From an uncultured Bacteroidales bacterium (lineage in GTDB: Bacteria > Bacteroidota > Bacteroidia > Bacteroidales > UBA10428): a stretch of DNA of 64,000 nucleotides. Positions 1,816-59,488 of this stretch are shown in pieces. Each line of letters begins with the position of its first letter. Position 1 is the stretch's first letter. The notes below the pieces were generated by a model. That model was not told the DNA's origin, made no database searches, and saw only the letters and a list, made by a program, of their open reading frames with translations. The translations under genes were made by a program, and so were the position numbers. The stretch spans positions 27,235-91,234 of the forward strand of contig CAWBNI010000042.1 of assembly GCA_963790105.1 (NCBI GenBank), read 5' to 3'.

Positions 1816-2943
1816 ATGAAAAAATTCTTAAAAATCGGGTTGCTTGTCCTGGTGGTTTGCTCAATCTTCGGTACCATGTTTTACCTGTATCAGAAATCAA
1901 AAAAGAAACCAGTGGTTTATGAGGTAAAATCTCCTTTCATTTCCAATATTGTCAAAAAAACGGTAGCCACAGGTTCAGTTGTTCCCAGGAAAGAAATTCT
2001 GATAAAGCCCCAGGTATCCGGTATTATTGAGGAATTATATATACTGGCCGGTAACCAGGTGAAAAAAGGCGATCTTATCGCCAGGGTAAAGATCATTCCC
2101 AATATGGTTGAGTTGAATAATGCCGAATCAAGGCTGAACAAGGCAAAAATTAATTTTGAAGATGCAAAAACCGTATATGAGCGCCAGAAGAAGGTATTTG
2201 AGCAGGGGGTGATTCCTATGGCTGAATTCCAGCAATACAAACTTACCTATATGAATGCCATGGAAGAACAGGAAACGGCAGAATCAAATCTTCAGCTGAT
2301 CAAGGAAGGCGTTTCAAAGAAACAGGGAGGGGTTACAAACACCCTTATCCGTTCAACCATTGAGGGAATGGTACTTGATGTTCCCGTTGAAGTAGGAAAT
2401 TCAGTTATTGAAGCCAATAATTTCAATGAGGGAACCACGATTGCCAGCGTTGCTGACATGGGTGAGATGATTTTCAAAGGCAAGGTAGATGAAACAGAAG
2501 TCGGCAAACTGAAAATTGGTATGCCGCTGATTCTTTCCATTGGCGCAATTGAAGATGAAAAATTTGATGCCTCACTGGAATATGTTGCTCCGAAAGGAAA
2601 AGAGGAGAACGGCGCAATACAGTTTGAGATTAAGGCCAATGTAAAGCTGAAAAGCAATAATTTCATCCGGGCAGGATACAGTGCCAATGCAGATATTGTT
2701 CTTGATCGACGGGACAGTGTCATGGTAATACCCGAAAGCCTTATCCAGTTTGAAAAAAGCGGTGATTCGGCTTATGTGGAAGTTGAGAAACAGCCCCAGG
2801 TATTCGACAAGAGGTATATTAAGACAGGTTTATCCGATGGTGTTAATATTGAGATAAAGGAAGGCATAACAAAAGATGACAAGATAAAGGGCGCTAAGAT
2901 TGAAGCCACACCGGCTCCTAAGAAAGAAGGAGCACAGGGGTAG
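1816..2943 (+). CDS. Efflux transporter periplasmic adaptor subunit (HlyD/MacA membrane-fusion family)
   Basis: Intact 375-aa ORF with N-terminal membrane anchor, lipoyl-like/coiled-coil/beta-barrel pattern (GDLIARV..., coiled-coil region, ...ANADIVL) and operon context with the two FtsX permeases. Confidence 0.9.
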   Translation: MKKFLKIGLLVLVVCSIFGTMFYLYQKSKKKPVVYEVKSPFISNIVKKTVATGSVVPRKEILIKPQVSGIIEELYILAGNQVKKGDLIARVKIIPNMVELNNAESRLNKAKINFEDAKTVYERQKKVFEQGVIPMAEFQQYKLTYMNAMEEQETAESNLQLIKEGVSKKQGGVTNTLIRSTIEGMVLDVPVEVGNSVIEANNFNEGTTIASVADMGEMIFKGKVDETEVGKLKIGMPLILSIGAIEDEKFDASLEYVAPKGKEENGAIQFEIKANVKLKSNNFIRAGYSANADIVLDRRDSVMVIPESLIQFEKSGDSAYVEVEKQPQVFDKRYIKTGLSDGVNIEIKEGITKDDKIKGAKIEATPAPKKEGAQG

Positions 2944-2949: not shown

Positions 2950-2978
2950 GTGAGAGTGACAAGTGACAAGTGACGAGG
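2950..2978 (+). repeat. GTGACAA-type heptamer array (GTGAGA GTGACAA GTGACAA GTGACGA GG) starting 7 nt after the adaptor stop codon; followed by hairpin ATCCCT-gtt-AGGGAT at 2987-3001
   Basis: Read directly from the sequence. Same word family as arrays at 19822, 44878, 47543 and 56989. Confidence 0.8.
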
Positions 2979-3415: not shown

Positions 3416-3622
3416 ATGCTTGATGTAAAGTATAATATTAAAAGTCTCATTTCAAGCATTTATGAATGCCAGAAAAAGATCATTATTAATCGTCGATTCA
3501 TTCGGGAACTTGAATCAGAGGGGAATGATACAAATAAGCTCAGGGGGGAAATTTCCGATCTTGAACGAAAAATCAGTGAATTTCAGAAAGAACTGAGAAA
3601 AAGGTATCAATTCTCTCTTTAA
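3416..3622 (+). CDS. Hypothetical small coiled-coil protein (68 aa)
   Basis: ATG ORF in a markedly AT-rich island, heptad-like charged sequence (RELESEGNDTNKLRGEISDLERKISEFQKELRK), bracketed by two terminator-like hairpins. No family recognised. Confidence 0.35.
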   Translation: MLDVKYNIKSLISSIYECQKKIIINRRFIRELESEGNDTNKLRGEISDLERKISEFQKELRKRYQFSL

Positions 3623-3699: not shown

Positions 3700-4945
3700 C
3701 TAATCGAATTTTGTCTTAATAAACCACCAGTCATGCAGGGAGAAGCTGACCACAATGGAATGGTATCTTTCCCTTATCAGTCCGTTGGTTACGGAACCCC
3801 GTACTCCGCTGTTGTAGGAAACATTTACGGTGGTTTTATTCTTGGCGAAGGGGATACCAAATCCAAGAGAATAGCCGGTTTCATCAATTGATTTATTGTT
3901 GATCTCCACATAATATCCTTCACGGTAAAAGCCCGCACGATAGGCAATTCTTCCCATAAAGCCATATTCATTCATGCGGCCTGGAATATATTCAACACCC
4001 ACCCTGTAGGCATTTGTATTTACATAACTGAACTGCGTGTTGGTGGAATTTTCGTTTACAGCGGACCAGTTTCGATACATATAGTCTGCATTGATACTTA
4101 ATTTATTGAACATATCGAGTGATATACCGCCGCCAATATATAACGGAAAATCGAATGTGCCTTGCTGGGTGATCTTATCTTCAAAAATTTGTCCGTTGGA
4201 TTGCGAAATCTTTAACTCCTCCGTAAAATTCAATTTATGGGTATTGCCAAAGACTCCTCCTATTGACAAACGGGAATCTTTGTTCAGGTTAAAGAAATAT
4301 TGAAATCCGAAATCAACCAGAATCTTATTCACATGGGCCGTTTTGGTAGATGTAATTGTTCCTGCAATCTGGTCATATTGCACAGTTTCTGAAGAATTGA
4401 TAGTCCCAAAAACGTATGAGGTGGTAGCGCCCAGGCTTAGATGATGGAAAAGCACAAAAGCATTGTCCAGGTAAAACTGGGTTAATCCCCCCGATCCTGT
4501 GAGATCAGCTGTAAACAAATCCGTTGTGCCTTCCACATTCTTTGTGGATGTTATTTTATATCCGACTGTGCTGAAAGGTACAATGCCTAATCCGCCAGTC
4601 CAGTTTTTTGCTACTTTGTACCCCATGGCAATATTCCTTATATTGATATCATGACCATGCTGTGTAAGGTAACTCGTTTCATATTTGACGAAATCCATAC
4701 CAAGGCCAAAATCAAAAAAGAAAGAGATACTATCCAGATCATGATAAGAAGCCGGGTTAAGATTATTCAGGTAGTGTCCGGAAGCGTTGGCAATTCCTGA
4801 TTTGCCCATACCCAGGTTTCGGCTTAAACCCTTTGGATTGATCTCACCAATTCCGAAAATAGAGTAGGGCAGATTCGTTCGTACCTGTGCAGAAGCATTC
4901 AATGCAATATAAAAGAAGGAAAAAATGAATGAAGAATCTTCTCAT
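3700..4945 (-). pseudogene. Outer-membrane beta-barrel protein (family not identified); signal peptide sits in a different frame from the barrel
   Basis: The 400-aa ORF 3700-4902 has alternating beta-strand pattern, aromatic C-terminus (...WWFIKTKFD) and starts at TTG with no signal peptide. Just upstream ATG at 4945 encodes MRRFFIHF..., and removing one base of the A6 run at 4920-4925 gives MRRFFIHFSFFYIALNASAQ|VRTN..., a good signal peptide. Confidence 0.6.
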
Positions 4946-12821: not shown

Positions 12822-12926
12822 ATGGTGGTCAAAGTTAAAAATTTATATGGGAATAGCCAGTAACCGCTTTCGTTTCATATGAACATTCTGAAGGTTTGTT
12901 TTTCGTATTATTGCAAAAAGGTTCAC

Positions 12927-13634
12927 ATGATCCAGCTTGTCCTTACCGGTGATGGTTCACATACCCTGTACATTCCTGAATTGAATGAACATTATCATTC
13001 AACTTACGGTGCATTAACTGAATCGCTTCATGTTTTTATCCGGAGCGGCCTGGATTGTTTTGCCGGCAGCCGCGAGATCTCAATTTTTGAAACCGGATTT
13101 GGAACGGGACTGAATGCACTTCTGACAGCGTTAAGTGCAATGAGGTCGGGCATGAAGGTATGGTATTTTGCCGTTGAGAAGTATCCTGTTGATCCAGAGA
13201 TAGTGAAACAGCTTAATTACCCTCATCTCCTGAAGGATGCTGAAATTGACGCTGAAGCATTATTTAATGCTATTCATGAGGCCGACTGGGAAACCATGAC
13301 TGAAATCCATCCCTGTTTTCATCTGAAAAAGATGAAAGGGGATATGTGCAGTTTTGTTCCGGATGGCAGCTATGACCTGGTTTATTTTGATGCTTTCGCG
13401 CCGGACAAGCAACCGGAAATATGGACGGGTGAGATCATGCAACGCCTTGTTTCATCGATGAAACCTGGCGGTATCTTTACCACATACTGCGTGAAAGGAT
13501 CAGTGAAACGAATTTTGAGAGATTGCGGCCTCACTTTGGAAAAACTGCCCGGCCCGCCAGGGAAGAGGGAGATTCTTAGGGGGACGAGGGACCAGGGACT
13601 AGGGACTAGGGACGAGGGACGAGGGACAGGATAG
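12927..13634 (+). CDS. mnmD: tRNA (mnm5s2U34) methyltransferase MnmD-like (MnmC methyltransferase-domain homologue)
   Basis: Inner ATG at 12927 gives MIQLVLTGDGSHTLYIPELNEHYHSTYGALTES... and SAM fold ETGFGTGLN, YFDAFAP...PEIW. The last ~18 codons (RGTRDQGLGTRDEGRGTG) are translated from the GGGACGA array. Confidence 0.65.
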   Translation: MIQLVLTGDGSHTLYIPELNEHYHSTYGALTESLHVFIRSGLDCFAGSREISIFETGFGTGLNALLTALSAMRSGMKVWYFAVEKYPVDPEIVKQLNYPHLLKDAEIDAEALFNAIHEADWETMTEIHPCFHLKKMKGDMCSFVPDGSYDLVYFDAFAPDKQPEIWTGEIMQRLVSSMKPGGIFTTYCVKGSVKRILRDCGLTLEKLPGPPGKREILRGTRDQGLGTRDEGRGTG

Positions 13635-13879: not shown

Positions 13880-13903
13880 AATTTATATTTTAATTAAAAT
13901 TAT

Positions 13904-14097: not shown

Positions 14098-14128
14098 CAA
14101 AGGTAAATAATTTTATTTTTCATCCAAA
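14098..14128 (-). promoter_or_regulatory. Candidate Bacteroidota-type promoter of rpmH (TTTG -33 / TACCTTTG -7)
   Basis: Minus strand reads TTTG (14128-14125), 19-nt spacer, TACCTTTG (14105-14098). This fits the published Bacteroides consensus TTTG-N19-21-TAnnTTTG, ~40 nt upstream of the ATG. Confidence 0.45.
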
Positions 14129-14135
14129 TATTTTT

Positions 14136-14300
14136 GGCAATTGTTTCTTGGCAATGTGCTATTATGCTAATGTGCCAATGTGCCAATCTGCCAATGTGCC
14201 ATATGTGCCAATGTGCCAATGTTCATGAATGCCAATGCGCTAATCATATACTATCGTCTCCTTGTGCCTTAGTGCCTTTGTGGCAAAACTGCAAAACTGC
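14136..14300 (+). repeat. Composite element: (GTGCCAAT/GTGCTAAT)n array, box GTGCCTTTGTGGCAAAACTGCA, AACTGCA units. A direct copy of the module on the other side of rpmH
   Basis: Array ~14136-14245, box 14272-14293, AAACTGCAAAACTGCGG to ~14300. Same order and orientation as 13688-13824. Confidence 0.8.
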
Positions 14301-14311
14301 GGACCAGTCCC

Positions 14312-16298: not shown

Positions 16299-16346
16299 TC
16301 CCGGGGTAATTGATGTTTTAAAATTATATTCTACAGCCGCATATTA

Positions 16347-17348
16347 TTACGGATTATATGAACTCATGTTTAGTATTTTCATATAATCCTTCTCAGCCAT
16401 CAACATGGGCAAGGTAATATCTGAATTTTTAGCCATATAGGCAGTAACAATTTTGTAACCAATCCACACAGCAGCCCTGGCCGGTGATTCACGGCCAAAA
16501 TCTTTTGTATACGGACCCTCGAGTATGAATTTATCAATTGTAAAACGGTCGGTATTAAATAAATATTTCTTTTCGATGAGTTCAGTCCACATGGCTTTTT
16601 CATTTGCAGCACAGTATTCCAGGTTTTTTGCAGAAAAACCCCAGTTGATCGAATCAGGATCGTCGGGAAGCATAGCGCCTGTGAAATACATCATTTTACC
16701 GCGGTAGATCATATTTGAAACCAGGTTGTTTATTGAATCATAAAAAGGAAATTCGGTTTCTCCCCAGAATGTTATGCAATCCGGTGCCAGTTTTTTGGGA
16801 TACATATTCCCGACCAGATATTTGTAAATGCCCGCATCAATGTATAACGGTTCATTGCTGCCAAGATATTTATCCAGTCCCATTGCAATGAGACTATCCC
16901 CTGTAATTGCCGACTGGTTGAAACCGGCTACATAAGTTATGAAGCGGGGAAGCGGCTTTTCAGGAAAATAATAGCGGTAATGCTTATAAGCTTCTTCCAG
17001 CTTAGCTTTGAAGGCATCCACATTCGGATAAACTTCCATAGTGCGTTTATAGATCAGGTAATTGGTATGATCAGTTACAAATAGCGTCAGCCTGTCGGCA
17101 AAATCCGGATCATTAACATTTCCAAGTTTTACAATGTAACTGAAATACTGAAGGAAAGACCCATATCTTTTCTGCCATACCGGAATGGAATCCCTGATTG
17201 CGGATGGATCAGCTGAAAACAGGTCTTTTTCAAATCGATCTATTGTTATGTTTACCTGTATCTTACTTACGTTAACATGTACCTTATCCTGTTTGCAGGA
17301 AATAGCCACCCCGGCCAGGATCAGGATTAGTACGGGGATTAACTTCAT
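16347..17348 (-). CDS. gldB: Gliding-motility lipoprotein GldB-like
   Basis: Inner ATG gives lipoprotein signal MKLIPVLILILAGVAISC. IDRFEKDLF near the N-terminus and ESPARAAVWIGYKIVTAYM near the C-terminus resemble Flavobacterium GldB as I remember it. nadE proximity fits the gldB neighbourhood reported for F. johnsoniae. Confidence 0.55.
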   Translation of the reverse strand: MKLIPVLILILAGVAISCKQDKVHVNVSKIQVNITIDRFEKDLFSADPSAIRDSIPVWQKRYGSFLQYFSYIVKLGNVNDPDFADRLTLFVTDHTNYLIYKRTMEVYPNVDAFKAKLEEAYKHYRYYFPEKPLPRFITYVAGFNQSAITGDSLIAMGLDKYLGSNEPLYIDAGIYKYLVGNMYPKKLAPDCITFWGETEFPFYDSINNLVSNMIYRGKMMYFTGAMLPDDPDSINWGFSAKNLEYCAANEKAMWTELIEKKYLFNTDRFTIDKFILEGPYTKDFGRESPARAAVWIGYKIVTAYMAKNSDITLPMLMAEKDYMKILNMSSYNP

Positions 17349-17503
17349 ATTGATAAAACAGATTGGTAAATTTCCTTTTTCAGATTCGCTCATTTTCGCG
17401 AGATTGCCAGGGCAGGCAAAATTAAGCGCAAATTTATGAATGTCAAAATATTTATTTCCAAACTTCAATAACTTTGTGGGAAATAAACTAAAACTAAATA
17501 ATT

Positions 17504-18160
17504 GTGAAAAAGCTATTTATTTTCTTTATTCTGGTTTACTCTTCCGCATTGTTCGCCCAATCAAAAGTGAGGCTTGGAGCCCATGTAGATCCTGTTTTTA
17601 CATGGTTCTCGCCTAAAACATCGCACATTGAAAAAGACGGGGCCCGGCTTGGATACAACGGAGGACTGATTGTGGAATATTATTTCGCGCCAAACTATGC
17701 TTTGGTTACCGGCCTGAATCTGACCCAGCTGGGCGGTAATCTTCTTTATAAAGAAGAAGTGGATATAACCACAGGTGAAGGTGATCATGTGATACTGCCT
17801 CCCGAGACATCTGTGGCCTTTAATGTGAATTACCTTACTATTCCCATGGCCCTGAAACTCAAATCGAATGAGATCGGTTATCTTACCTATTTTGCTGAAC
17901 TGGGCTTTTCACCCCAGGTCAATATTGGATCGAGAGCCTCTTCAACCGGCGGTGCTCTTGATAAGGATAATGTTTCAAAAGAAATTAATGCTTTTAATGT
18001 ATCTTTCTTTTTTGGAGGAGGCATTGAGAAGAATATAGGAGGTCAGACCTCCTTGATGGGTGGTATCTTTTTCAATAACGGTTTTGGAGATATATTGTCA
18101 GCGGATGCTCACAAGGCCGCCTTAAATTTTGTGAATATCCGGCTTGGCATTATGTTTTGA
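17504..18160 (+). CDS. Small outer-membrane beta-barrel protein (OMP_b-brl_2 / PorT-like family)
   Basis: 218 aa, GTG start, signal peptide MKKLFIFFILVYSSALFAQ, alternating amphipathic strands, C-terminal ...NIRLGIMF. Confidence 0.7.
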   Translation: MKKLFIFFILVYSSALFAQSKVRLGAHVDPVFTWFSPKTSHIEKDGARLGYNGGLIVEYYFAPNYALVTGLNLTQLGGNLLYKEEVDITTGEGDHVILPPETSVAFNVNYLTIPMALKLKSNEIGYLTYFAELGFSPQVNIGSRASSTGGALDKDNVSKEINAFNVSFFFGGGIEKNIGGQTSLMGGIFFNNGFGDILSADAHKAALNFVNIRLGIMF

Positions 18161-18171
18161 AACTTTCTCAC

Positions 18172-19827
18172 ATGAAAATTGCACTCGCTCAACTGAACTA
18201 TACCATTGGAGCATTTGATGAAAATGTAAATAAGATAATATCGGCAATCCGCAGGGCCCGGCACGACAAAGCAGCCCTGGTTGTATTTTCTGAACTGGCT
18301 GTTTGTGGTTATCCTCCCCTGGACCTTCTCGAACACAGAAGCTTTATTGAGAAATGCGATGAGTCAATAATTAAGATTGCTGCCGAATGCCGTGATATTG
18401 CAGCCATTGTTGGCGGTCCATCGGTTAATCCCAATCCATCCGGCAAAAATCTGTACAATTCAGCTTATTTTCTGGCCGATGGTTCCATTCAAAAGGTGAT
18501 TAATAAAACCCTTCTGCCCACCTATGATATCTTTGATGAATACCGTTATTTTGAGCAGAATTCCGATTTCAGTCTGATCCAATACCAGGGTTACAATATT
18601 GCTGTCACTATTTGTGAAGACCTCTGGTTTCGCCAGCCGATCCTCACAGGATTCGGAAAGAACAGGTTATATTCAGTTTGCCCGATGGACAAACTTTCTT
18701 CGCTTGGTCCCGACTTTGTGATCAATCTTTCTGCATCTCCTTTTTCATGCAACCAGGGTGAGATCAAATCGGAGATCCTAATTGACAATGCCAGGCAATA
18801 CAGGATCCCAATTTATTATGTGAACCAGATCGGAGCCCATGCCGAACTTATTTTCGATGGCGGGTCCATGGCCGTGGATGCAAGGGGTGAAATAAAAAGA
18901 ATGAAACTTTTCGAAGAGGATTTCCAGGTTGTTGATACGGAAGATACCTCCCGGGGCGAAGGATTTTCGGTATATATTGATGAGGATAATGATGTTGAAC
19001 TGATTTACCATGCCCTGGTACTGGGGATCAGGGATTACTTTGGCAAGATGGGCCTGAAATCGGGAGTACTTGGCTTATCAGGAGGTATTGATTCGGCCGT
19101 TACGCTGGCCCTGGCAAGTGAAGCGCTGGGTGCATCTTTTATGAGGGTTTTACTGATGCCTTCGCAATATTCTTCCGGTCATTCAATTACCGACGCGGTG
19201 AAACTGGCAGAAAAACTGGGTGTCCGTTACGATATAGTGGATATCCGTTCGATCTACAGCGCATTTACCGAATCGCTTTCTGACTTGTTTAAAGGCAGGC
19301 AGCCTGACCTGAGCGAAGAAAATATCCAGGCCCGTATACGTGGGAACCTGCTCATGGCAGTTTCGAACAAATTCGGAAATATTCTGCTGAACACATCCAA
19401 CAAAAGTGAAGCAGCCGTGGGATATGGCACATTGTATGGCGACATGAGCGGCGGATTGTCTGTTCTGGGAGATGTATACAAAACCGATGTTTACCGCCTG
19501 GCGGCCTACATTAACCGCAATGAAGAAATTATTCCGCTGAACACGATCATCAAGCCACCTTCCGCTGAATTAAGGCCCGACCAAAAGGATTCTGATTCTC
19601 TCCCGGAATACGATATTCTGGATAAGATCCTGTTCAATTATATCGAATTAAAAAAATCAGTTGCAGAGATCATCCAGTTGGGAATCGATGAACGGGTTGT
19701 GGTAAAAACCATTAAGATGGTGAACCAGAATGAATACAAAAGGTACCAGACTCCACCGATACTGCGTGTTTCATCAAAAGCTTTCGGATCAGGCAGGGTG
19801 ATGCCTCTGGTTGCCAAATACGAGTGA
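18172..19827 (+). CDS. nadE: Glutamine-dependent NAD+ synthetase
   Basis: N-terminal nitrilase/CN-hydrolase domain (MKIALAQLNYTIG...FSELAVCGYPP...ICEDLW) plus C-terminal NAD synthetase domain (GLSGGIDSAV...). The stop TGA lies inside the first GTGACAA repeat unit. Confidence 0.9.
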   Translation: MKIALAQLNYTIGAFDENVNKIISAIRRARHDKAALVVFSELAVCGYPPLDLLEHRSFIEKCDESIIKIAAECRDIAAIVGGPSVNPNPSGKNLYNSAYFLADGSIQKVINKTLLPTYDIFDEYRYFEQNSDFSLIQYQGYNIAVTICEDLWFRQPILTGFGKNRLYSVCPMDKLSSLGPDFVINLSASPFSCNQGEIKSEILIDNARQYRIPIYYVNQIGAHAELIFDGGSMAVDARGEIKRMKLFEEDFQVVDTEDTSRGEGFSVYIDEDNDVELIYHALVLGIRDYFGKMGLKSGVLGLSGGIDSAVTLALASEALGASFMRVLLMPSQYSSGHSITDAVKLAEKLGVRYDIVDIRSIYSAFTESLSDLFKGRQPDLSEENIQARIRGNLLMAVSNKFGNILLNTSNKSEAAVGYGTLYGDMSGGLSVLGDVYKTDVYRLAAYINRNEEIIPLNTIIKPPSAELRPDQKDSDSLPEYDILDKILFNYIELKKSVAEIIQLGIDERVVVKTIKMVNQNEYKRYQTPPILRVSSKAFGSGRVMPLVAKYE

Positions 19828-19926
19828 CAAGGGACGGGGACAAGGGACAGAATTGCACTCAGAGACAGGATATTCTGTAACCCCTACCCTGCCGCGCTTG
19901 TCCCTCTGTCCCTCGTCCCTCGTCAC
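19822..19926. repeat. Inverted heptamer arms bridging convergent nadE and recQ stop codons
   Basis: Left arm GAGTGACAAGGGACGGGGACAAGGGACAG (19822-19850). Right arm CTTGTCCCTCTGTCCCTCGTCCCTCGTCAC (19897-19926) is its reverse-complement word family. 46-nt spacer. Both stop codons are the TGA of a GTGAC unit. Confidence 0.85.
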
Positions 19927-21833
19927 TTCTTCGACACCGCCAGTCGCATTTCTTCGTTCAGTTTCAATTCATCATTATCCAGCAGCCATTGCAGTACCTC
20001 TATCACTTTGTCGCGATGAACTGCAACCCGGTCAAATAATTCATCAGGAGATAAGGGTTCAAGATTAAGTACTGCCAGTATTTCTTCGCGTATGAGGTTA
20101 AATTCCTCCTGTCGGAGGACCGATTCTTTTTTTATCCTGCAGATATCGCATTCACCACAGGGTTCGGACCCGGGCTCACCGAAATATTCCAGCAGGGTTT
20201 GGCTCCTGCATTTGTCTGTTGATGAGGCATATTGCAACATTGCCTTAGCCCTTTCGGTATATCGTTCCCTCCTGGTCTGGAAATTTTCCCTTGAGATATA
20301 AATCGCCTTTTCATCCAGTCTTTCCTCAAAGAAAATAACCATGGGGGAGCGCTTCTGCGGGATATAGCTGATCACACCCAGCGCGACAAGCTTGTTAAGG
20401 TATTGTTTTACTACCTCCAGATCCACATTGGCTCTTTTGGCCAGCTGGATTTCATCAATTGCAGAATATTCGGTAAAGATACCGGTGTACGACCGAAGGA
20501 GGAGCTTGATAAATGCATCGAATGGAGAATTGGAAACCTGGAAGCGGTAAAGATCGTCGCGGTTAAGCAAAAATTTAATCCGGCTGGGATTATTAATTTC
20601 CTCTGTCACTTCAAGATATCCTTCCAGCTCAAGAATTTTCAGACTGCTGAAGGAGGTAAACGGGGAAAGACGGTAAGTGCGGGCAAATTCATTGTGATTA
20701 AAATCAAAAGACATCCCCTTTCCCCCGCCTACTGGGATTTGAAGGTAATTCCCCAGGGCCGAATACGTGCTTTTGATGGTTTGCATATCCGGAAAATTGG
20801 CGATGATCCGCTGGTTAACAGTGAGTATATCCGAAGCGGAATACAGGAGGATGGCAAATGCTTTCCTGCCATCACGGCCTGCCCGTCCTGCTTCCTGGAA
20901 ATAGGCTTCCGGAGAGTCCGGCATATCCACATGGATCACAAACCTGACATCGGCTTTGTCGATTCCCATTCCAAAAGCATTGGTGGCCACAATCACCCGT
21001 ATCTTACCCGTGGTCCAGTTTTGCTGCACCTCATTCCGCACCGGATGTTCCAAACCCGCGTTATAATAGGAAGCGGAGATACCTTCCCGCGTCATGGTTT
21101 TAGCGATCTCGATACTTTTTCTCCTGCTCCTCACATAAACAATACCGCTTCCCTTCAGCTTTCTTACCATATCCAGCACATCGCGGTCCTTGTTTTCAGT
21201 TGTCTTCACCGCGTAAATAAGGTTTTCCCTCCTGAAACTTGATTTCAGCAGATTTTTTGCTTTAAACTGCAGCTTAAGCTGGATATCCTCAATTACGGGT
21301 CTGGTTGCAGTGGCCGTTAGTGCCAGCACGGGTACCTCCGGATGAAATTGCCTGAGATCGGAGATTTTGAGATAGGAAGGTCTGAAATCATAACCCCATT
21401 GTGAAATACAATGTGCCTCATCTACGGTGATCAGGTTAACCGGCATATCCAGGAACCGTGTTCTGAACAGTTCAGTGGAAAGCCGTTCAGGTGAAACATA
21501 CAGGAATTTGTAGCCCCCGTAAAGGCAATTATTCAGAGCAACATCAATTTCATCACGGGTACATCCCGAATGTACGGCTACTGCCTTGATCTCCAATTTC
21601 TTCAGATTTTCAACCTGATCCTTCATCAGGGCAATCAACGGGGTGACCACCAGGCATAAGCCGGGCATTGTCATCGCAGGTACCTGAAATGTAAGTGATT
21701 TCCCCCCGCCGGTAGGCATAAGTCCCAATGTATCTTTTCCGGCAAGTACTGAACGGATGATTTCTTCCTGCAGAGGTCTGAAGGAGTTGAATCCCCAGTA
21801 TTTCCTAAGGGTATCGTGATAGTCGGACATCAA
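19923..21833 (-). CDS. recQ: ATP-dependent DNA helicase, RecQ family
   Basis: Intact 636-aa ORF with helicase motifs TGGGKS, DEAHCISQWGYDFRP, SAT-type LTATAT, ATNAFGMGIDK, QEAGRAGRDG and a RecQ C-terminal Zn-binding cysteine cluster (CR...C..CD.C). Confidence 0.9.
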   Translation of the reverse strand: MMSDYHDTLRKYWGFNSFRPLQEEIIRSVLAGKDTLGLMPTGGGKSLTFQVPAMTMPGLCLVVTPLIALMKDQVENLKKLEIKAVAVHSGCTRDEIDVALNNCLYGGYKFLYVSPERLSTELFRTRFLDMPVNLITVDEAHCISQWGYDFRPSYLKISDLRQFHPEVPVLALTATATRPVIEDIQLKLQFKAKNLLKSSFRRENLIYAVKTTENKDRDVLDMVRKLKGSGIVYVRSRRKSIEIAKTMTREGISASYYNAGLEHPVRNEVQQNWTTGKIRVIVATNAFGMGIDKADVRFVIHVDMPDSPEAYFQEAGRAGRDGRKAFAILLYSASDILTVNQRIIANFPDMQTIKSTYSALGNYLQIPVGGGKGMSFDFNHNEFARTYRLSPFTSFSSLKILELEGYLEVTEEINNPSRIKFLLNRDDLYRFQVSNSPFDAFIKLLLRSYTGIFTEYSAIDEIQLAKRANVDLEVVKQYLNKLVALGVISYIPQKRSPMVIFFEERLDEKAIYISRENFQTRRERYTERAKAMLQYASSTDKCRSQTLLEYFGEPGSEPCGECDICRIKKESVLRQEEFNLIREEILAVLNLEPLSPDELFDRVAVHRDKVIEVLQWLLDNDELKLNEEMRLAVSKK

Positions 21834-21906
21834 CCCCGGTTAATTGTATTTTTCAAACCAATATTACTTCTTTTTTTGTAATTTCGCACCATTTATAAAT
21901 ATTGCC

Positions 21907-23376: not shown

Positions 23377-23404
23377 CATACACTTACATTACAGTAGTCT
23401 AATT

Positions 23405-35152: not shown

Positions 35153-35845
35153 GTGGTTGTTTTTGAAAATGCTTCTATTTTCCAGGAAGATCACCTGGTC
35201 ATGTCGGGTGTTAACTTTTCCCTGGCCCGTGGCGAGTTTGTTTACCTGATAGGTCGGGTAGGTAGCGGGAAATCGAGTCTGATTAAAACTATTACGGCTG
35301 AACTGCCTTTAAAAGAAGGATCAGTGAGCGTGGTGGGATTTCAGCTTGAGTCACTCAGATCCAGGCAAATTCCCTTATTAAGACGGAAACTGGGAATTGT
35401 ATTCCAGGATTTTCAATTGCTGATCGACCGTTCTGTATATGACAACCTGTATTTTGTATTGCATGCCACCGGATGGAAGAATAAAGAGGAGATTGACCAG
35501 CGGATCATGCAGGTACTGGAAAAAGTGGAGCTGCAGAATAAGGGTTATAAGATGCCTCACCAGTTATCAGGCGGAGAGCAGCAGCGTGTTGTGATTGCCA
35601 GGGCATTGCTCAATGACCCGGAAATCATTCTTGCCGATGAGCCTACTGGTAATCTCGATCCTGAAACTTCGGAGGGAATAATGAATCTCCTGCGGGAGAT
35701 CAGTGAAAGCGGTTGTTCAGTATTGATGGCCACCCATAACTATACCCTGCTGAAAAAGTATCCGGCCCGCACAATGAAATGCCAGGACGGAAAGCTGGTG
35801 GAGATTCAGGAAAGTGATGAAATCGATTTTTCCACGCTGGATTGA
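35153..35845 (+). CDS. ftsE: Cell-division ABC ATPase FtsE
   Basis: GTG start. Walker [11 protein letters not shown]-loop, signature LSGGEQQRV, Walker [13 protein letters not shown]-loop. A possible N-terminal proline/glutamate repeat extension from ATG 35052 needs two frame corrections. Confidence 0.85.
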
Positions 35846-36341
35846 AGGAGGGACAAGGGACGAGGGACGAGGGACGAGCAGGAAATATCCTTTTAGAGGA
35901 TATCTGGCAGTAGAAGAAGTTACGGGGGATAAGGAATTCATCTGATATTATTTCCAGTTATACAATCCATTAACGATTTTGAATTTATTGGAATTACCAG
36001 AGGGTAATTTTAAAGTGGAAGGTCTTTATGTAGGGACGAGGGACGAGGGACAAGGAAGTTTTGCAGTTTTGCAGTTACTAGCGGTTCTGCGATCATGCAG
36101 TCGTGCAGTCGTGGGCAGATAAACTGTTCTGCGGTTCTGCAGTTAAGGTGCCGGAAAATGCGCGTAGCGCATTAATTATTGTAGAATGTGCAGTATGCTG
36201 CAGTTTTGAATGGTGTAGTCGAGACAGCCTCGGAGAGGCCTGATTTCAATAACCGTGGTGTACCCACGGAGAATGAGTGCGTTGTCTCTCAGCCCGAGGG
36301 CTGACAAAAATCGTAAATCGTATATCGTAAATCGTAAATCA
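35846..36341 (+). repeat. Composite mosaic region with arrays, hairpins and hp2 element A
   Basis: GGGACGA array 35846-35882. Hairpins ATATCC..GGATAT (~35886-35903) and ATTACC-agag-GGTAAT (~35993-36008). Second GGGACGA array 36030-36055. TGCAG arrays 36058-36144. Hairpin AATGCGC-gta-GCGCATT 36157-36173. hp2 copy A 36227-36269 (GCCTC-gga-GAGGC, TGATTTCAATAACC, CCGTGG-tgtac-CCACGG). AATCGTA array 36307-36341, ending 7 nt before the MORN gene ATG. Confidence 0.85.
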
Positions 36342-43274: not shown

Positions 43275-44895
43275 ATGGAAATCTGTAAACAAAATATACC
43301 CTTTATAGGATCATCCATTCCCCTTTCAGATGATAAACATCACAATAAAACCTGCCGGAATTTCCGTGACAGGTTTTATTTGTTTTTGATCCTGTGCCTG
43401 ACGGGATTGCCGTTTGTTTCAGCCCAGGATTCCTTGCTGGTTCAGCATTTCACGGTTCCTGATACAACCTGTACGGTGGATGCAGCCATGCAATTGATAG
43501 AACAGCAAACCGGCCTGTCTTTTTCATATAATACGGATATCATCAACAAGAAGAAAGTCATCACCCTGCATGGCGGACCGGAATGAATTGATCCACATTC
43601 TTGAAAATACCTTTAACGATCCGCAGTTAAACTTCAGCATCATTGGACGCCATATTGTGGTTTACCAGACCCAGCGGACCCTCTCTGCCAATCCCGAAAG
43701 GCCCAGGGATTCGGTGTATTTTTTTGAGATCAGGGGAAGGGTGCTTGATAAATCGGATAAGCAACCCCTGCCTTATTCCAGTATTTATCTTTCAGGCAAA
43801 GCAATAGGAACTGTTACAAACGATAACGGGCAATTCCAGTTAAAACTGCCTTCGAAATACCTGGCTGATACGCTTATTGTTTCATGTATCGGATATAAGC
43901 GGATCAAGGCGCCGGTTTCAAGCTTCCTGAGTGAAGAAAAGGATTACCTGTTAAAACCTGATGTGATATCAATCCAGGAAGTGATCATCCGGAAAATCAG
44001 TCCGGTTAATCTGCTTCAGTCTGCCACAGAAGCGGTGTTTGAGAATTATCCCGACAAGCCGGCCATTCTCAATTCATTTTACAGGGAAATGATCAAAAAG
44101 GGAAGCCGTTATATGATGGTTTCAGAAGCTATTCTTGAAAACTATAAACCGGGCTATGACAGGACAGCAGCTTCTGACCAGGTTAAAATATCTGAAGGGA
44201 AGAAAAAGCCAGGATCCGGGAACAAAGGATACAGTGATCCTGAAACTGAAAGCCGGGCTGAATACAATGCTTCAGCTGGATGTGGTGAAAAACATGCCCG
44301 ATTTCTTAACCGGCGAAAATACGCAGGATTATGATTACAAAATGTCGGATATCGTTGTGGATAATGGAAGGGAACAATATGCCATTGAATTTTCACCTAA
44401 AAAAGGCTCGGAAAATATATTTTATAAGGGACGAATATTGCTCGATGTAAGGAATCTTGCTTTTACCTGGGTAGAATTTTATGTCGATCCGGAAAAGCTT
44501 GACATGGCAACGAAGAATTTTATTGTAAAGAAGCCTTCCTATATGAAGGTGAAAGTTCTGAAAGCCAGTTATAAAATTGCTTTCCGGTTGACAGGCAACA
44601 AGTATTACCTGCACATGATTGAATGTGAAACGGAATTCAGGATCAAGGACAGACATCAGATTCTCAGGATCGGTATATCATACAGGACTTGGAAATGGTT
44701 GTTACAGAAATTGATACCATAAATGCTGCCCGGTTCAAATTCAGGGAAACTGCCCGGTTAAATGAGTTTTTTACCGACCAGCTGGGCGCTTATGATGAGT
44801 CCTTCTGGGGGGAATATAATTTCATCAGTCCGGAAGAATCTTTGGAGCAGGCACTGGTTAAGCTGGCGAAGAAGAAAGTGACGAGTGACGAGTGA
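43275..44895 (+). pseudogene. STN-domain + CarboxypepD_reg-like protein lacking a TonB-dependent plug/barrel (about 3 frame interruptions)
   Basis: STN-like signalling domain (VDAAMQLIEQQTGLSFSYNTDIINKKKVIT...), then IRGRVLDKSDKQPLPYSSIYLSGKAIGTVTNDNGQFQLKL, then the same C-terminal region as 40204-41513. Total ~540 aa, too short for a SusC/FecA barrel. The last codons (KKVTSDE) come from the GTGACGA array. Confidence 0.6.
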
Positions 44896-45117
44896 CAAGT
44901 GACAATGTGCTAATGTGGCGAATGTGGTAGGATGTGCAAATGTGCTAATCGTGCCAATGCCATGTGCCAAAGGGCAATGTGCAAACTATGCCAACGTGCA
45001 AAACTGCAAGACTCATAAACTATATTTCTTATGTGCCATGGCAATGCCTTTGTGGCAATAACTGCAAAACTGCATAACTTCATAATCATAATTCATAATT
45101 CATAATTCTTAATTTCT
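44878..45117 (+). repeat. Continuous 240-bp chain of drifting short tandem arrays: GTGACGA, GTGACAA, TGTGCTAA/GTGCCAA, GTGCAAAAC, box, TGCAAAAC/TGCATAAC, CATAATT
   Basis: GTGACGA/GTGACAA 44878-44905. ATGTGC/GTGCCAA units 44904-45000. 10-bp palindrome TGCCATGGCA 45034-45043. Box TGCCTTTGTGGCAATAACTGCA 45045-45066. CATAATT units 45079-45117. Confidence 0.85.
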
Positions 45118-46354: not shown

Positions 46355-47543
46355 ATGGAGCCATTCAGTCGCGTTATCCTGAAATCGGGGAAAGAACAAT
46401 CAATCAAGCGCCTTCATCCCTGGATTTTTTCAGGTGCCATAAAGAAAATCGAGGGAAAGCCGGCTGAAGGTGACACTGTGGAAATATTTTCCGGCACCGG
46501 AGAATACCTGGCAACCGGTCATTACCAGATAGGATCCATTGCAGTGCGGATTTATTCTTTTCACCAGGTCACTACCGGATTTTGATTTCTGGAGAATGAA
46601 ATTCAAGTCTGCCTTGGATTTGCGCACTACACTCGGACTCACTGATAATAAAGACACCAATGTATACCGGCTTGTAAACGGTGAAGGTGATGGCATGCCC
46701 GGTTTTATTGTCGATTATTACAATGGCATCGTGGTGATGCAAATGCATTCCGTTGGCATGTACCTTTTGAGGGAACAGCTGGCAGAGGTAATAAAGGCCT
46801 TGTATGGCGACAAATTACTGTCCATTTATGATAAAAGCGAGGGTACAATTCCTGTGAAAGCCGGGTTAGGGATCAAAAACAAGTTCATTTACGGTGATCA
46901 GTCCGTTATTGAGATCATTGAAAACGGCTGCCGTTTTTCAATCGATGTTATTTCCGGACAAAAAACAGGATTTTTTATTGATCAGCGTGAAAACCGCGAA
47001 CTTCTTACCCGGTACATCAAAGGCAAAGATGTGCTCAATATGTTTTGCTATACCGGAGGATTTTCGGTTTATGCCTTGCATGGCGGCGCTGCTTCGGTTG
47101 ATTCTGTTGATAGTTCGGCCCAGGCCGTGGAACTTACCAAACAGAATGTTAGCCTGAATCCTGAAGGTACCGGCAGGCATCAGACCTATATTGCCGATGC
47201 GTTTTCCTTTTTAAATGACATCGCTGATAAATATGATGTGATCATTCTCGATCCCCCTGCGTTTGCCAAGCATACCGATGCACTCGACAATGCACTGATG
47301 GCTTATAAACGGCTTAATGCCAAAGCAATTGAACAGATCAGGCCGGGAGGGATCATTTTTACATTTTCCTGTTCCCAGGTAGTGAACAGGGAGAATTTCA
47401 GGCGGTCGGTTTTTGTAGCCGCAGCCAATACCGGGCGCAATGTCAGGATACTTCATCAGCTTGTCCAGCCACCGGATCATCCCGTCAGCATCTTTCATCC
47501 CGAGGGGGAATACCTGAAGGGACTTGTGCTGCAGGTGGAATAG
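46355..47543 (+). pseudogene. rlmI: Class I SAM-dependent rRNA (cytosine-C5) methyltransferase, RlmI-like (one frame interruption)
   Basis: N-terminal PUA-like part (MEPFSRVILKSGKEQSIKRLHPWIFSGAI...) in ORF 46355-46585. Methyltransferase core (VLNMFCYTGGFSVYA..., ILDPPAF...) in ORF 46539-47543. Confidence 0.75.
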
Positions 47544-47783
47544 AGTGACAAGGGACAAGGGACTAGGGACAAGTCAGTTTGAATGTTGCCGAAGTCATCA
47601 CTTTGGGACACCAAAACAAATTTCGAAAATGTGAAAATGTAGACTAAGATTCAATTTGTAGAATCCTTTGTGCCTGTTGTGGCAGAAATATTCACGCCGA
47701 CTTTAGAACATTCGCTCAGAAGCCTGCAGAACCTGCAGAACTGCAGAACCTACTTGTTACTCGTCACCTGTCCCTTGTCACTC
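47543..47783. repeat. Mosaic element between convergent rlmI and MORN genes, with inverted heptamer arms
   Basis: Left arm GAGTGACAAGGGACAAGGGACTAGGGACAAGT (47543-47574). hp1 variant CCGAAGT-catc-ACTTTGG (47589-47606). Box variant CCTTTGTGCCTGTTGTGGCAGAAAT (~47665-47690). CTGCAGAA array 47722-47750. Right arm ACTTGTTACTCGTCACCTGTCCCTTGTCACTC (47752-47783), the inverted heptamer arm. Confidence 0.85.
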
Positions 47784-48223
47784 TTAACAAGTTCTCCTTT
47801 ATCGTACATCCCGCTCTGGCTGGTGCCATTAGCCCAGGTATATTTTCCCTGTCCCTGGAAAAGGTTATCCTTGAAGTAGCCGGTATATTTATCCCCGTTG
47901 GGATAGAAATAAATGCCATATCCGTTTTGAATTCCCTGTTCCCAGGCGCCTATATATTTTGATCCATCGGACCATATGTATGTGCCCTGGCCCTGGAATT
48001 TATCCTTTACCCACATGCCGTCATAGGAACTGCCGTCATTGCCCTTCAGCATGCCCCGGCCTTCTCTTAGTCCGTTCACAAAACCTCCTTCATAGGAAAA
48101 CCCGTTTGAATATCGATAGGTTCCCTTTCCATTTTCACAATTTCCATATACACATCCCTGCTTGTCCTGTGCATAGGCCATCACCGGTAAGAAGAAAATC
48201 AGGTAAAGAATCGTTCTTAGCAT
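47750..48223 (-). CDS. Secreted MORN-repeat protein (157 aa)
   Basis: Signal peptide MLRTILYLIFFLPVMAYAQ. About 6 MORN units (YEGGFVNGLREGRGM, YDGMWVKDKFQGQGTY, YIGAWEQGIQNGYGIY, YTGYFKDNLFQGQGKY). The last 9-10 codons (SDKGQVTSNK) are encoded by the heptamer arm. Confidence 0.8.
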   Translation of the reverse strand: MLRTILYLIFFLPVMAYAQDKQGCVYGNCENGKGTYRYSNGFSYEGGFVNGLREGRGMLKGNDGSSYDGMWVKDKFQGQGTYIWSDGSKYIGAWEQGIQNGYGIYFYPNGDKYTGYFKDNLFQGQGKYTWANGTSQSGMYDKGELVKSDKGQVTSNK

Positions 48224-56804: not shown

Positions 56805-57000
56805 GTTCTGCAGTCCTGCGGTTTTGCAGTTTTGCAGTTTTGAAGTCATGCAGTCTCAGTCGTGCAGTCGTGCAGTCATGCAGTCGCCTTCGTGCAGTTC
56901 TGCGGTTTTGCAGTTTTGCAGTTTCAGTCACTCCCTCTCAATTCTCATCTCTCATCTCTCATCTCTCATCTCTCATCTCTCATCTCTCGTCACTCGTCAC
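56805..57000. repeat. Composite: (GTTTTGCA/GTCGTGCA)n TGCAG-type arrays, near-perfect (TCTCATC)6.5 array, inverted GTGACGA units overlapping the next gene's stop
   Basis: TGCAG-type units 56805-56929. TCTCATC array 56943-56988. GTCACTCGTCAC 56989-57000 (GTGACGAGTGAC on the minus strand), abutting the TAG stop of the minus-strand gene 57000-57911. Confidence 0.85.
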
Positions 57001-57911
57001 TACTTCATCCACTTCACCGGCCATGGCAGCATATTCCGCGTGATCACCGGGTAATGTGTGACAACTGAACCAAATCCCGAATTAAAATAGGCGATACCGG
57101 GGATATTGGATCCGGCAAAATCAAAGACGAGTCCTGAACCTGCGTTCTTGCTGATCATATGATTCACCAGCATATACATTGCCTGGTTTTCCTTTCCTTT
57201 TTCCGTGGATGCGCATACCTGGAACAGGCACCTTCCCAGGGTAGTAATAAACCATCCGGCAGCAACGAGTTCACCCGTATGGCTGTATACGCCAACAATC
57301 TCTCCGGTTGCCTGCTGAACGCTTGCAGATGTGATCCTTAAAAGGGTCGGGTAAAATGTTTTCCGGGTACCGGTGAGTTGTTTCTCCAGGTTATTTTTAA
57401 TAAAACGGGTGAATGCAGAAGGGGAAGGTCCCTGCTTTACAATCAGCCCGGCATGTATCGCCTTTTGAATATTCCTTCGGCAATTGCGGTGATAATTACT
57501 GGTTAGCTCAATTGAGGAAGGGTGCAAATCAAGAATAAAGTTTTTTCGGGTTGAAAAGGTGATATCGGAATGCTGAACGTTGTTATCTGAATTAAGTTGA
57601 ATTTGGACATATTTGTATTTCAGCGGGATCGCTGATAAAAATTCAGTGATTGTCTCCGGCCTGACCGGGGAGGGTGAAAAAATCCCCAATTGCTGGGTGA
57701 AGTAAGGTTGATACAGGTAATTGATCCCGAATTTACGGCCATGGGTTAAGGGCATTACGGCGAGGAAGTCATCCTCGACCAGGGCATCCCATTCCGGGCA
57801 TACGGCATCGAGCCACCATGAAAGGGCGTAGGGTAGCCTGTTTTGGGAGTTTGCGATGCAGGCGTCCCATTTTTGCAGGTCGATGGAGGAGTGGGGGAGG
57901 TGGTGGATCAT
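57000..57911 (-). CDS. Hypothetical protein, FemAB/GNAT-fold-like (tentative)
   Basis: Intact 303-aa ORF. The N-terminal pattern (IDLQKWDACIANSQNRLPYALSWWLDAVCPEWDALVEDDFLAVMPL...YQPYFTQQLGIFS) resembles conserved Bacteroidota proteins I recall as annotated GNAT/FemAB-like. Weak call. Confidence 0.4.
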   Translation of the reverse strand: MIHHLPHSSIDLQKWDACIANSQNRLPYALSWWLDAVCPEWDALVEDDFLAVMPLTHGRKFGINYLYQPYFTQQLGIFSPSPVRPETITEFLSAIPLKYKYVQIQLNSDNNVQHSDITFSTRKNFILDLHPSSIELTSNYHRNCRRNIQKAIHAGLIVKQGPSPSAFTRFIKNNLEKQLTGTRKTFYPTLLRITSASVQQATGEIVGVYSHTGELVAAGWFITTLGRCLFQVCASTEKGKENQAMYMLVNHMISKNAGSGLVFDFAGSNIPGIAYFNSGFGSVVTHYPVITRNMLPWPVKWMK

Positions 57912-58094: not shown

Positions 58095-58175
58095 CATTGT
58101 TCACTGTTCATCGTTCTTCGTTCCTCGTCCCTTCTGTCTCTCCTTGTCCCTCGTCTCATCGTCCCTCGTCCCTTC
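58095..58175 (-). repeat. Graded heptamer array drifting from CATTGTT to TCGTCCC (GGGACGA on the minus strand), overlapping the 3' end of the minus-strand gene
   Basis: CATTGTT CACTGTT CATCGTT CTTCGTT CCTCGTC CCTTCTG TCTCTCC TTGTCCC TCGTCTC ATCGTCC CTCGTCC CTTC. The first five units each differ from the previous one by 1-2 substitutions. Confidence 0.85.
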
Positions 58176-59488
58176 TTCAACCATTCCCTCAAACACCTCT
58201 CTCCACCCTTTCCAGATTCCCTGTCCGGAGAGAGATTCGTTATGCCACAGGCTGAGGAAAGTTCCTTCAACCTGCTTTACCTGCCGGAGGATATTCTTTA
58301 TTCGATCAAGTGCCTCATCGGGGAGTAAGCGCCCGATATTGCTGCAGGGTAACATCCATAACAGCAAAGGGAAATATGACAAGGTCCGTCTCACTTTCAT
58401 TCGTCAGATCATAAAAATTAAAGGAGGAACAGGTGCCGGCCCTGAAACCGGGATAAGAGGCATATCCCATGGAATAGTCCTCCCTGATTCCCATTTCAGC
58501 GAGCCGGCGGTATGTTTCAGGAAACCGCAGGATAAGGAAATGCTGGCGGCTGATATTTGGGAGATTGCCTGCGATCTCTGCATACCGTTTCTGTTCAACC
58601 GGAAGAAGCCCTGCATGATCATTTGACCGCAGGGAAGGATGAATGCCTGTCCTGTGATCCTGGCCGATCTGTTGAACCAGCTGTCTGAAATGCGGCGTAT
58701 TCAGAGTGTAATTACAATCAAACCTGTCATAATCTGCAAACAGGAAAAAGAAAATTGATTTGAAATTATATTTCATTTCAATGCTCCGGATATACCCGTA
58801 GGTATCAAACGGATCCTGCATGGAACCCCGGAGTACTGAAAGTCTCTGGCTAAAATCGGCATAACGTGCCTGCCATAAGGCTTTCAGACTTCCTGCGACA
58901 CTTCTTACTAATCCCTTATGCAGGAAAGACCAGGGATTGTCGATGTCAAACGTGGAAATGTAGTGGAACGACTGTGGCGGAAAAACCAGGTCAGGGAATT
59001 TTTTTTGCAGTAATTTTTTAAAAAGAATGAGCCATTGGTCGATGACCGGCTCTTCAAGGAAACCGTTTCTGAATGCCAGGCTCTGGTCGGCTTCAAAACG
59101 TCCGTATTGATCGGGCTCAAAGGGAAGATATTCTTCATATCGTGATAAGCAGGAAAAAGCAGGCTGAGAACAGATCAAACGGCAGATTGAATCCTTCGGG
59201 GGCCGGATAAAGATACGTCTGGCCTTCCTTTCGAAAATAGCCGGTTTCGTGTTTTTTGAACCCTGTTTCGGATAGTAGTCCGCTGGCGAAAATATTGAAG
59301 CTGTCTTCAAGCGGATTTGTACCATAATTAATTATGATCCCGCCGGAGGAAAGGCTGTCCTTGATGAACTGACCGGTCCGGATTAATTTGAAGGCGCATC
59401 CAAGCCGTGTGGAAATAAATCGTGTTATGTATTTCATCCGGTCGGAAACGACCGGGCTAAGCAGGATTATTTCAACAGGTGCTTGCAT
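58101..59488 (-). pseudogene. Hypothetical protein, polysaccharide-deacetylase-like (tentative), 2 frame interruptions
   Basis: Fragments 59135-59572 (real start probably MQAPVEIILLSPVV... at 59488), 58315-59325 (...YISTFDIDNPWSF...) and 58101-58400 (...LSLWHNESLSGQGIWKGWREVFEGMVEEG, then a repeat-encoded tail). Family call is weak. Confidence 0.35.

Follow-up and report, generated by a model that had tools for sequence, protein, structure and literature searches.

Inverted G-rich repeat arrays between convergent nadE and recQ-family genes of an uncultured Bacteroidales bacterium, a probable by-product of hypervariable arrays at gene 3' ends

Introduction

Intergenic heptamer repeats that have multiplied in particular lineages were described decades ago, the known cases being cyanobacteria, Xanthomonas and Beggiatoaceae. 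Here, we describe arrays of G-rich, approximately heptameric repeats in a stretch of 64,000 nucleotides (nt) from an uncultured Bacteroidales lineage with 43.6% GC (GenBank assembly GCA_963790105.1, contig CAWBNI010000042.1, positions 27,235 to 91,234; this whole stretch is hereafter called the window), with emphasis on an inverted pair of arrays located between the convergent genes nadE and recQ, the latter coding for a RecQ-family helicase. The pair is probably explained by two independent, hypervariable arrays, each situated on the sense strand at the 3' end of its own gene, which cap both open reading frames (ORFs) and supply their stop codons, the hairpin resulting from the convergence of the genes.

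The closest described repeats are the intergenic G-rich heptamers GGGAATC of Xanthomonas and GGGGA(C/T)T of Nostoc (Rehm et al. 2015, PLoS One, PMC4692102). These are mostly found on the coding strand 0-50 bp from a stop codon, sometimes overlapping the stop, and are under-represented between divergent ORFs; their position is kept between the Xanthomonas genomes Xcc and Xac, their length and sequence vary extensively, and each genome holds 70-75 convergent array pairs with stem-loop potential. Another group is formed by the TAACTGA heptamers of Beggiatoaceae, cyanobacteria and a few Bacteroidetes, whose stop-bearing units overlap upstream stop codons (MacGregor 2015, PMC4679880). As cited in the latter paper, Mrazek et al. 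(2007) dealt with long simple sequence repeats of 5-11 nt and with the cyanobacterial STRR heptamers, and heptamers were proposed to arise by polymerase slippage. Finally, the repetitive extragenic palindromic (REP) elements of Escherichia coli are associated with 3' untranslated regions (~60% between convergent, ~40% between tandem and ~1% between divergent genes), are reported to act as partial terminators and as decay blocks or stabilisers, and vary in location between strains (bioRxiv 10.64898/2026.03.23.713779).

The nadE/recQ junction

The junction is composed of the following features:
18172..19827, + strand: nadE, glutamine-dependent NAD+ synthase (NCBIfam NF010588, 642 bits, cutoff 479)
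19822-19850, + strand: left arm GAGTGACAAGGGACGGGGACAAGGGACAG, 29 nt, G-rich array on the sense strand of nadE, containing the nadE stop codon
19851-19896: spacer of 46 nt, which is the loop of the predicted hairpin
19897-19926, - strand: right arm CTTGTCCCTCTGTCCCTCGTCCCTCGTCAC, 30 nt, G-rich array on the sense strand of the recQ-family gene, containing its stop codon
19923..21830, - strand: gene of a RecQ-family ATP-dependent DNA helicase (TIGR00614, 402 bits, cutoff 219.8)

The probable start codons are ATG 18172 (nadE) and ATG 21830 (recQ-family gene), and the stop codons, at 19825-19827 (+) and 19923-19925 (-), are separated by 95 nt. The left arm is parsed as GAGTGAC-AA-GGGAC-G-GGGAC-AA-GGGAC-AG and the right arm, on the - strand, as GTGAC-GA-GGGAC-GA-GGGAC-AGA-GGGAC-AAG. 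In nadE, the last conserved residues (...VAKY) are followed by a final GAG (Glu) codon and the TGA stop, which together make up the first repeat unit, GAGTGAC. The helicase contains the Pfam domains DEAD, Helicase_C and RecQ_Zn_bind, and an identical protein is encoded on contig_22837 of ENA ERZ25039503. A neighbouring gldB gene assigns the organism to Bacteroidota.

A preliminary description of this DNA, based on its letters alone, had placed inverted heptamer arms in the gap and had located both stop codons in the TGA of a GTGAC unit. Both statements are borne out by the sequence, the coordinates and sequences of the arms being exact. Two of its terms have to be narrowed. The arms are indeed repeat arrays, to which Tandem Repeats Finder assigns a period of 7 with 3.4-3.6 copies per arm (77% matches in the left arm and 94% in the right one), but their units measure 6, 7 and 8 nt, so that "heptamer" is approximate. 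Likewise, the gene named recQ belongs to the RecQ family, being above the TIGR00614 cutoff, but scores below the cutoff of the equivalog that defines RecQ proper.

A lineage-specific family of arrays at gene ends

The window contains 16 copies of the motif GGGACNNGGGAC, where 0.12 would be expected. Tandem Repeats Finder reported dozens of arrays of period 7 or 8, belonging to at least 10 unit families, and a stringent array detector assigned 902 nt to arrays (~14 nt per kb), 92% of them inside the non-coding 22% of the window; 20 shuffled sequences gave none. The family to which the nadE/recQ arms belong was defined as G[GT]GAC plus a linker of 1-3 nt (G[GT]GACNN), and two or more G[GT]GAC units were counted as a cluster. 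On this basis, the window contains 11 clusters (0.81 expected from shuffles), a locus of a related species (L001) contains five and one of a co-specific strain (L161) two, compared with a single cluster in 158 other Bacteroidales loci (1.55 Mb). In the window, 10 of the 11 clusters adjoin the 3' end of a gene of the same orientation or overlap with it, and the remaining one is mid-intergenic between two co-oriented genes; none was found at the ~9 divergent junctions. The gene-proximal unit is usually GTGAC, which holds the TGA, and the distal units are GGGAC. Among other Bacteroidales, 68 of the 81 sources scored zero arrays, and those with arrays have unrelated units. Each arm of the nadE/recQ junction is a separate array with its units head to tail, and both arms belong to a single simple-sequence-repeat family, which is specific to this Bacteroidales lineage.

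Further stop-proximal members of the G[GT]GAC family in the window are listed below:
2955..2974, + strand: AGTGACA x3, a single array 12 nt past the stop of the + gene 1816..2943, at a co-directional junction
13581..13627, + strand: GGGACNA x7, without inverted partner; the + gene 12879..13634 runs through it at its C-terminus
35848..35878, + strand: GGGAC[AG]A x4, 3 nt past the stop of the + gene 35153..35845, co-directional and predicted to be unpaired
44877..44903, + strand: AGTGAC[GA] x4, which includes the stop of the + ORF 44689..44895
47544..47573, + strand: array directly past the TAG that ends the + gene 46539..47543; it forms the left arm of another inverted pair at convergent genes
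47755..47785, - strand: array through which the C-terminus of the - gene 47750..48223 extends, right arm of this second pair, 167 nt from the left arm
56986..57001, - strand: TGACGAG x2 followed by ATGAGAG x8, at the stop of the - gene 57000..57911
58142..58173, - strand: GGGACGA units, through which the - ORF 58101..58400 runs at its C-terminus

Five of these arrays (at 2955, 13581, 35848, 44877 and 58142) are predicted to be single-stranded, lie at co-directional ends and have no inverted partner. Where ORFs run through the repeats, short repeat-encoded C-terminal tails (e.g. ...GTRDEGRGT) are found, namely at 13579-13634, 47750-47785, 58101-58175 and L001 7816-7836; the tail of the gene ending at 13634 comprises 18 amino acids (aa) in the window versus 4 aa in L001.

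Turnover of the arrays in related genomes

In a genome scan with NadE, 80 loci were retrieved, of which only L001 has a recQ gene convergent with nadE, so that the junction comparison rests on L001 and L161. The former belongs to an uncultured Bacteroidales metagenome-assembled genome that is syntenic with positions 12018-25755 of the window (NadE 92% identical, ~88-90% nucleotide identity). The latter is the above-mentioned contig_22837 of ENA ERZ25039503, found by an exact-protein match with the protein starting at ATG 21830; its RecQ-family protein is identical and its nucleotide identity to the window is 98.5%. Exact-protein look-ups with NadE, or with proteins starting at the first possible TTG codons, gave no match, and a metagenome scan with the RecQ-family protein yielded no further orthologous junctions (best match 57% identical).

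The preliminary description had named a lack of arms at the orthologous loci of close relatives, unaccompanied by any change in gene ends, as evidence against its proposal. Both close relatives sharing the junction carry them, as follows:
L161: arms GAGTGACTAGTGACGGGGGACAA and CTTGTCCCTCGTCACTCGTCCCTTGTCAC, separated by an unrelated spacer of 21 nt
L001: nadE stop provided by the TAG of a TAGGGAC unit; recQ enters its array by 6 codons and ends on GGGACTAG; spacer of ~85 nt

Thus unit sequence, copy number, spacer and even the stop codon vary among the three genomes. Between the window and L161, 43 of the 105 alignment columns spanning arms and spacer differ (41%), against 82 of 7836 columns elsewhere (1%). 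Two other array-bearing junctions differ from contig_22837 in 12.7% and 25.8% of their columns, compared with 0-2.7% for other intergenic or coding DNA. At the orthologous gene ends 13634 and 14312, L001 has the same family in different copy numbers (2 versus 7 and 4 versus 1, L001 versus window). The arrays thus change very fast between strains. NadE proteins of the 80 relatives mostly end in ...A[KR]Y*, whereas that of the window ends in ...AKYE*; therefore, the array starts at the last conserved codon. An assembly artefact was rejected as the origin of the arrays, since arrays and structure are present in three independent assemblies.

Several genes are split in the window. A gene for a LytTR regulator (236 aa) and another one of 668 aa are each broken into several ORFs in the window, while contig_22837 or L001 has them uninterrupted; the regions concerned, 8045-8786 and 14312-16298, contain single-base insertions, which are most likely indel errors of the window assembly and not signs of pseudogenes. 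At 58101-59325, two adjacent ORFs resemble one frameshift-split gene.

Strand polarity

All 18 period-7/8 arrays situated within 20 nt of a stop codon are richer in G than in C when read on the sense strand, with totals of 273 G and 67 C, and two arrays read through by ORFs show the same bias, whereas array-free 3' flanks are evenly divided (21 with G>C and 21 with C>G). Arrays of opposite orientation can be only a few hundred bases apart, and the polarity therefore tracks the gene and not the direction of replication. Read in the sense orientation, the arrays have 39 of 63 frames closed by stop codons, versus 13 of 63 in the antisense one, a threefold difference in stop triplets. This accounts for part of the polarity, since an array abutting or overwriting a gene end is tolerable only if the ORF is still terminated. 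That polarity results solely from a stop trap in three frames was rejected, as such a trap fails for the pure GGGAC arrays. The polarity may be kept by selection at the RNA or translation level.

A separate purine-rich region of 140 nt (49853-49992), devoid of C and consisting almost entirely of purines, is located past a + ORF and comprises GAGGGGA/GAGGTGA arrays and AGTAAGG x12. Shine-Dalgarno-like AAGGAG motifs are abundant in it; the phylum of the host generally does without Shine-Dalgarno initiation.

Predicted hairpin and transcription termination

The RNA of the nadE strand (+) is predicted to fold with -53.3 kcal/mol (z -6.55) and that of the recQ strand (-) with -67.7 kcal/mol (z -7.99), none of 200 shuffled sequences folding as well; the fold of the junction as DNA reaches -25.3 kcal/mol (z -5.2). 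The predicted stem is imperfect and comprises 25-29 bp with mismatched linkers, the linker positions of the left and right arms not matching each other, and closes the 46-nt loop. The junctions of L161 and L001 also fold into long stems. A gapless inverted-repeat finder did not detect the nadE/recQ arms, because the linker lengths differ between them. Any transcript that extends across the gap can fold into this stem, as can the single-stranded DNA, and since the stem begins inside each stop codon, a terminating ribosome would have to melt its outer half.

Two further statements of the preliminary description thus hold, namely that pairing of the arms can give a long, imperfect hairpin in the transcripts of both genes and that the gap is free of a conventional stem plus U-tract terminator. 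Indeed, a consensus terminator scan of 19828-19922 found no stem-plus-T-tract match in the gap; overall, the match counts of such scans were at chance, and their resolution is too low for gene ends with and without arrays to be compared. The tails past the arms, UUCUUCGA and GUAUUUGG, contain 4 U in 8 nt each, against at least 5 U in 8 nt for an intrinsic terminator, and the imperfect stem with its 46-nt loop departs from the GC-rich stem with a loop of 3-8 nt that characterises intrinsic terminators. No Rfam family matched anywhere in the window at gathering thresholds. Past the stop at 2943, a canonical terminator is present at 3138-3161, 165 nt beyond the array, and arrays are therefore not general terminator substitutes. 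Canonical terminators were also noted elsewhere: a bidirectional one (A-tract, stem and T-tract) at 3643-3685, between the convergent genes 3416..3622 and 3700..4902, and an intrinsic one at 13840-13880, after rpmH (about 13909-14067, - strand).

Comparison with described repeat systems

The arrays reported here are of a kind already described in Xanthomonas and Nostoc; the phylum and the repeat unit are new. Like the repeats of Rehm et al., they are tandem, G-rich and intergenic with units of ~7 nt in at least two copies, lie close to stop codons on the coding strand, keep their position while varying in length, are rare between divergent ORFs and frequently form convergent pairs. Of the features compared, the only one not shared is the preference for four or more G3 tracts, which is absent from the nadE/recQ arms and is seen only in some other arrays. 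Differences concern the unit (G[GT]GACNN instead of GGGAATC or GGGGA(C/T)T), the supply of the stop codon by the proximal unit, and the polarity, which is absolute in the 64-kb sample, whereas Xanthomonas also has many non-coding-strand arrays upstream of ORFs.

The STRR and TAACTGA systems resemble the present one in their lineage-specific intergenic bursts of heptamers, in the overlap of some arrays with the stop of the upstream gene and in the reported assembly of several heptamer families in one intergenic region (Gramella, Aequorivita, Elizabethkingia). However, TAACTGA arrays mainly lie just upstream of start codons and have a different unit, whereas the G[GT]GAC family is found at 3' ends. 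In the window, AAATCGT arrays at 36308-36340 and 37150-37228 end 9 nt and 6 nt before the ATG codons 36349 and 37234; they constitute a separate 5'-proximal class that is reminiscent of the Beggiatoaceae TAACTGA repeats upstream of starts.

By analogy, the REP elements of E. coli would be the nearest functional counterpart. The G[GT]GAC arrays share with REPs and bacterial interspersed mosaic elements (BIMEs) the extragenic location at 3' ends of tandem or convergent genes. On the other hand, the REP unit is an imperfect palindrome of 20-40 nt, while the arrays consist of direct repeats without self-complementarity, which pair only with an opposite array. As with bidirectional intrinsic terminators, of which 3643-3685 is a canonical example, one hairpin is common to two convergent transcripts; unlike in those terminators, A/U tracts are missing, the stem of 25-29 bp is mismatched, the loop measures 46 nt and the stop codons lie inside the stem. 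The terminal inverted repeats, conserved interior, target-site duplication and multiple copies that define a MITE (a miniature inverted-repeat transposable element) are not found together at nadE/recQ.

Origin and possible roles of the inverted repeat

The nadE/recQ arms form a hairpin because the genes converge and their sense-strand arrays face each other. Three convergent junctions of the window bear inverted arrays of the same family, and the convergent ends 49894 and 50310 carry arrays of different families, which are unable to pair. The duplex energies of cognate arms are -45.3, -33.1, -54.7 and -43.5 kcal/mol and those of non-cognate arms reach -51.2 and -54.9 kcal/mol; indeed, the array at 35850 pairs with the recQ arm at -51.2 kcal/mol, compared with -45.3 kcal/mol for the cognate nadE/recQ pair. 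As a test of co-adaptation of the arms, the duplex-energy matrix showed no clear cognate advantage and so does not support a selected hairpin. Probably, the inverted repeat is a by-product of array polarity and gene orientation and not a co-adapted palindrome.

Some results weigh against this explanation. In the duplex matrix, two of the four rows have their strongest pairing with the cognate arm. The rare octamer family TTAGGGGC has only two occurrences in the window, and these flank one convergent junction (8786/9070). There, a palindrome of ~285 nt (8786-9073; -132.8 kcal/mol, z -9.3), with an inner inverted repeat of 43 nt between the TTAGGGGC arrays, spans the whole intergenic region from a LytTR response-regulator gene (+) to a dihydrolipoyl dehydrogenase gene (-); the repeat units include the stop codons, of which that of the LytTR gene varies by strain (TAG versus TAA). 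This hints that the arms of a junction may not always be independent, with template switching or a palindromic element as conceivable origins. Furthermore, stop content is insufficient to explain the polarity, since pure GGGAC[AG]A arrays carry no stop triplets and each nadE/recQ arm closes only the frame of its own gene. Finally, the gene calls of the window are our own crude calls, some of the genes being frameshifted.

The alternative put forward by the preliminary description, a dedicated bidirectional terminator or insulator in which the inverted arms were selected as a hairpin stopping both transcripts, is conceivable but doubtful, and is unsupported in the form in which it was stated. 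Very stable stems are predicted on both strands in all three genomes, no other terminator-like site exists in the 95-nt gap, the arms persist across ~88-98% nucleotide identity, and REPs between convergent E. coli genes have been reported as terminators or decay blocks. However, no U-tract follows either arm, the long loop and the mismatched linkers of the imperfect stem are atypical, the spacer is not conserved, and the arms belong to a lineage-wide array family whose members also occur singly and unpaired at co-directional ends and in which non-cognate arms pair equally well; moreover, the canonical terminator at 3138-3161 lies beyond an array, so arrays do not replace terminators in general. 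It is improbable that the arrays act instead as an antisense guard through Rho, whereby C-rich antisense RNA with a YC dinucleotide every 7 nt would load Rho and halt transcription entering the 3' end of a gene, including convergent read-through. Rho prefers C-rich, G-poor, unstructured RNA, and the antisense strand has C>G at 18 of 18 stop-adjacent arrays; termination at REP325 is also partly Rho-dependent. Yet the arms are only ~30 nt long, and the C-rich arm of each transcript would here be sequestered by pairing with its G-rich arm.

Structure or mobility of the DNA itself could also be invoked. As proposed for GGGNATC repeats, GGG tracts spaced by 4 nt might fold as G-quadruplexes in DNA or RNA and act in this form, a very unlikely explanation: the units consist of GGG plus 4 nt, related heptamers form G-quadruplexes in vitro (PMC4692102), and the motif G3N1-7 x4 is found at 13581 (7 tracts), 35850 (4 tracts) and L001 7695, 7812 and 2137 (4 tracts each). 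Nevertheless, the G-tracts are broken up by GTGAC units, which leaves 3 in each arm of the window and only 1 and 2 in the arms of L161, and on these counts a G-quadruplex at the nadE/recQ junction was rejected; many stop-adjacent arrays of other families (AGTGACA, ATGAGAG, TTGATNG) are devoid of G-tracts and have the same polarity. It is likewise very unlikely that a MITE-like or REP/BIME-like palindromic element, bounded by the arrays as terminal inverted repeats, was inserted between the two genes. Such an insertion would fit the same-family inverted arrays of the three convergent junctions, the 285-nt palindrome at 8786-9070 with its inner 43-nt inverted repeat, and a 25-nt hairpin module that is identical at two loci. 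A MITE was nonetheless rejected at nadE/recQ, where no target-site duplication flanks the arms and the interior is unrelated even between strains of 98.5% identity; in addition, the arms are direct tandem repeats that are also found alone, and they abut the last conserved codon exactly, on both sides and in three genomes, despite their differing lengths.

Under the favoured explanation of two independent sense-strand arrays, array change would be driven by replication slippage, a mechanism proposed for heptamer repeats generally. Once present, the hairpin would act like the REP elements between convergent E. coli genes, blocking 3'-to-5' exonucleases and hindering convergent read-through. By the same analogy, a role of the nadE/recQ hairpin as a REP-like barrier or 3'-end protector is plausible. 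A much broader possibility, which we consider unlikely, is a strand-polar intergenic "punctuation" with at least 10 families of 7-8-nt arrays, in which G-rich, C-poor arrays would cap ORFs and supply stops, AAATCGT arrays would precede starts and other octamers would lie between; a dedicated factor (a repeat-binding RNA or DNA protein, or Rho on the C-rich antisense strand) would maintain and read the arrays, and facing 3' arrays would serve as U-tract-less bidirectional terminators replacing canonical ones at some convergent junctions.

Other intergenic repeat modules

The 25-nt hairpin module AATGTGCCGAAGGCATCCCTTCGGG is identical at 13646-13670 and 50037-50061, and degenerate copies are present at 47581 and at about 7727 in L001. 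It is placed after G-rich 3' arrays and before AATGTGCY octamer arrays, and this recurring order suggests composite 3'-flank cassettes copied between loci. The octamer families AATGTGCY, GCAGAACT, GCAAAACT and GCAGTCGT occupy the mid-region of long intergenic stretches, in mixed orientation with respect to the genes, at 13688-13824, 14152-14300, 36057-36144, 37023-37089, 44904-45079, 47717-47751, 50102-50164 and 56805-56924, and often flank a conserved GTGCCTTTGTGGCAAAACTGCA core. At 51684-51750, octamer arrays AAATCTTC and CAAATCAA fill the entire 67-nt gap from the stop 51751 to the start 51683 of two co-directional - genes.

Conclusion

In summary, this Bacteroidales lineage adds a dense and clean case of stop-proximal repeats. 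Polarity is absolute in the sample, and the arrays provide stop codons as well as coding for variable C-terminal tails. The independent recurrence of a sense-strand, stop-proximal placement in a third phylum argues for a common transcription or translation constraint and not for chance. For genome annotation, it implies that hypermutable repeats determine where genes end in such genomes, and that inverted repeats between convergent genes are not necessarily terminators.

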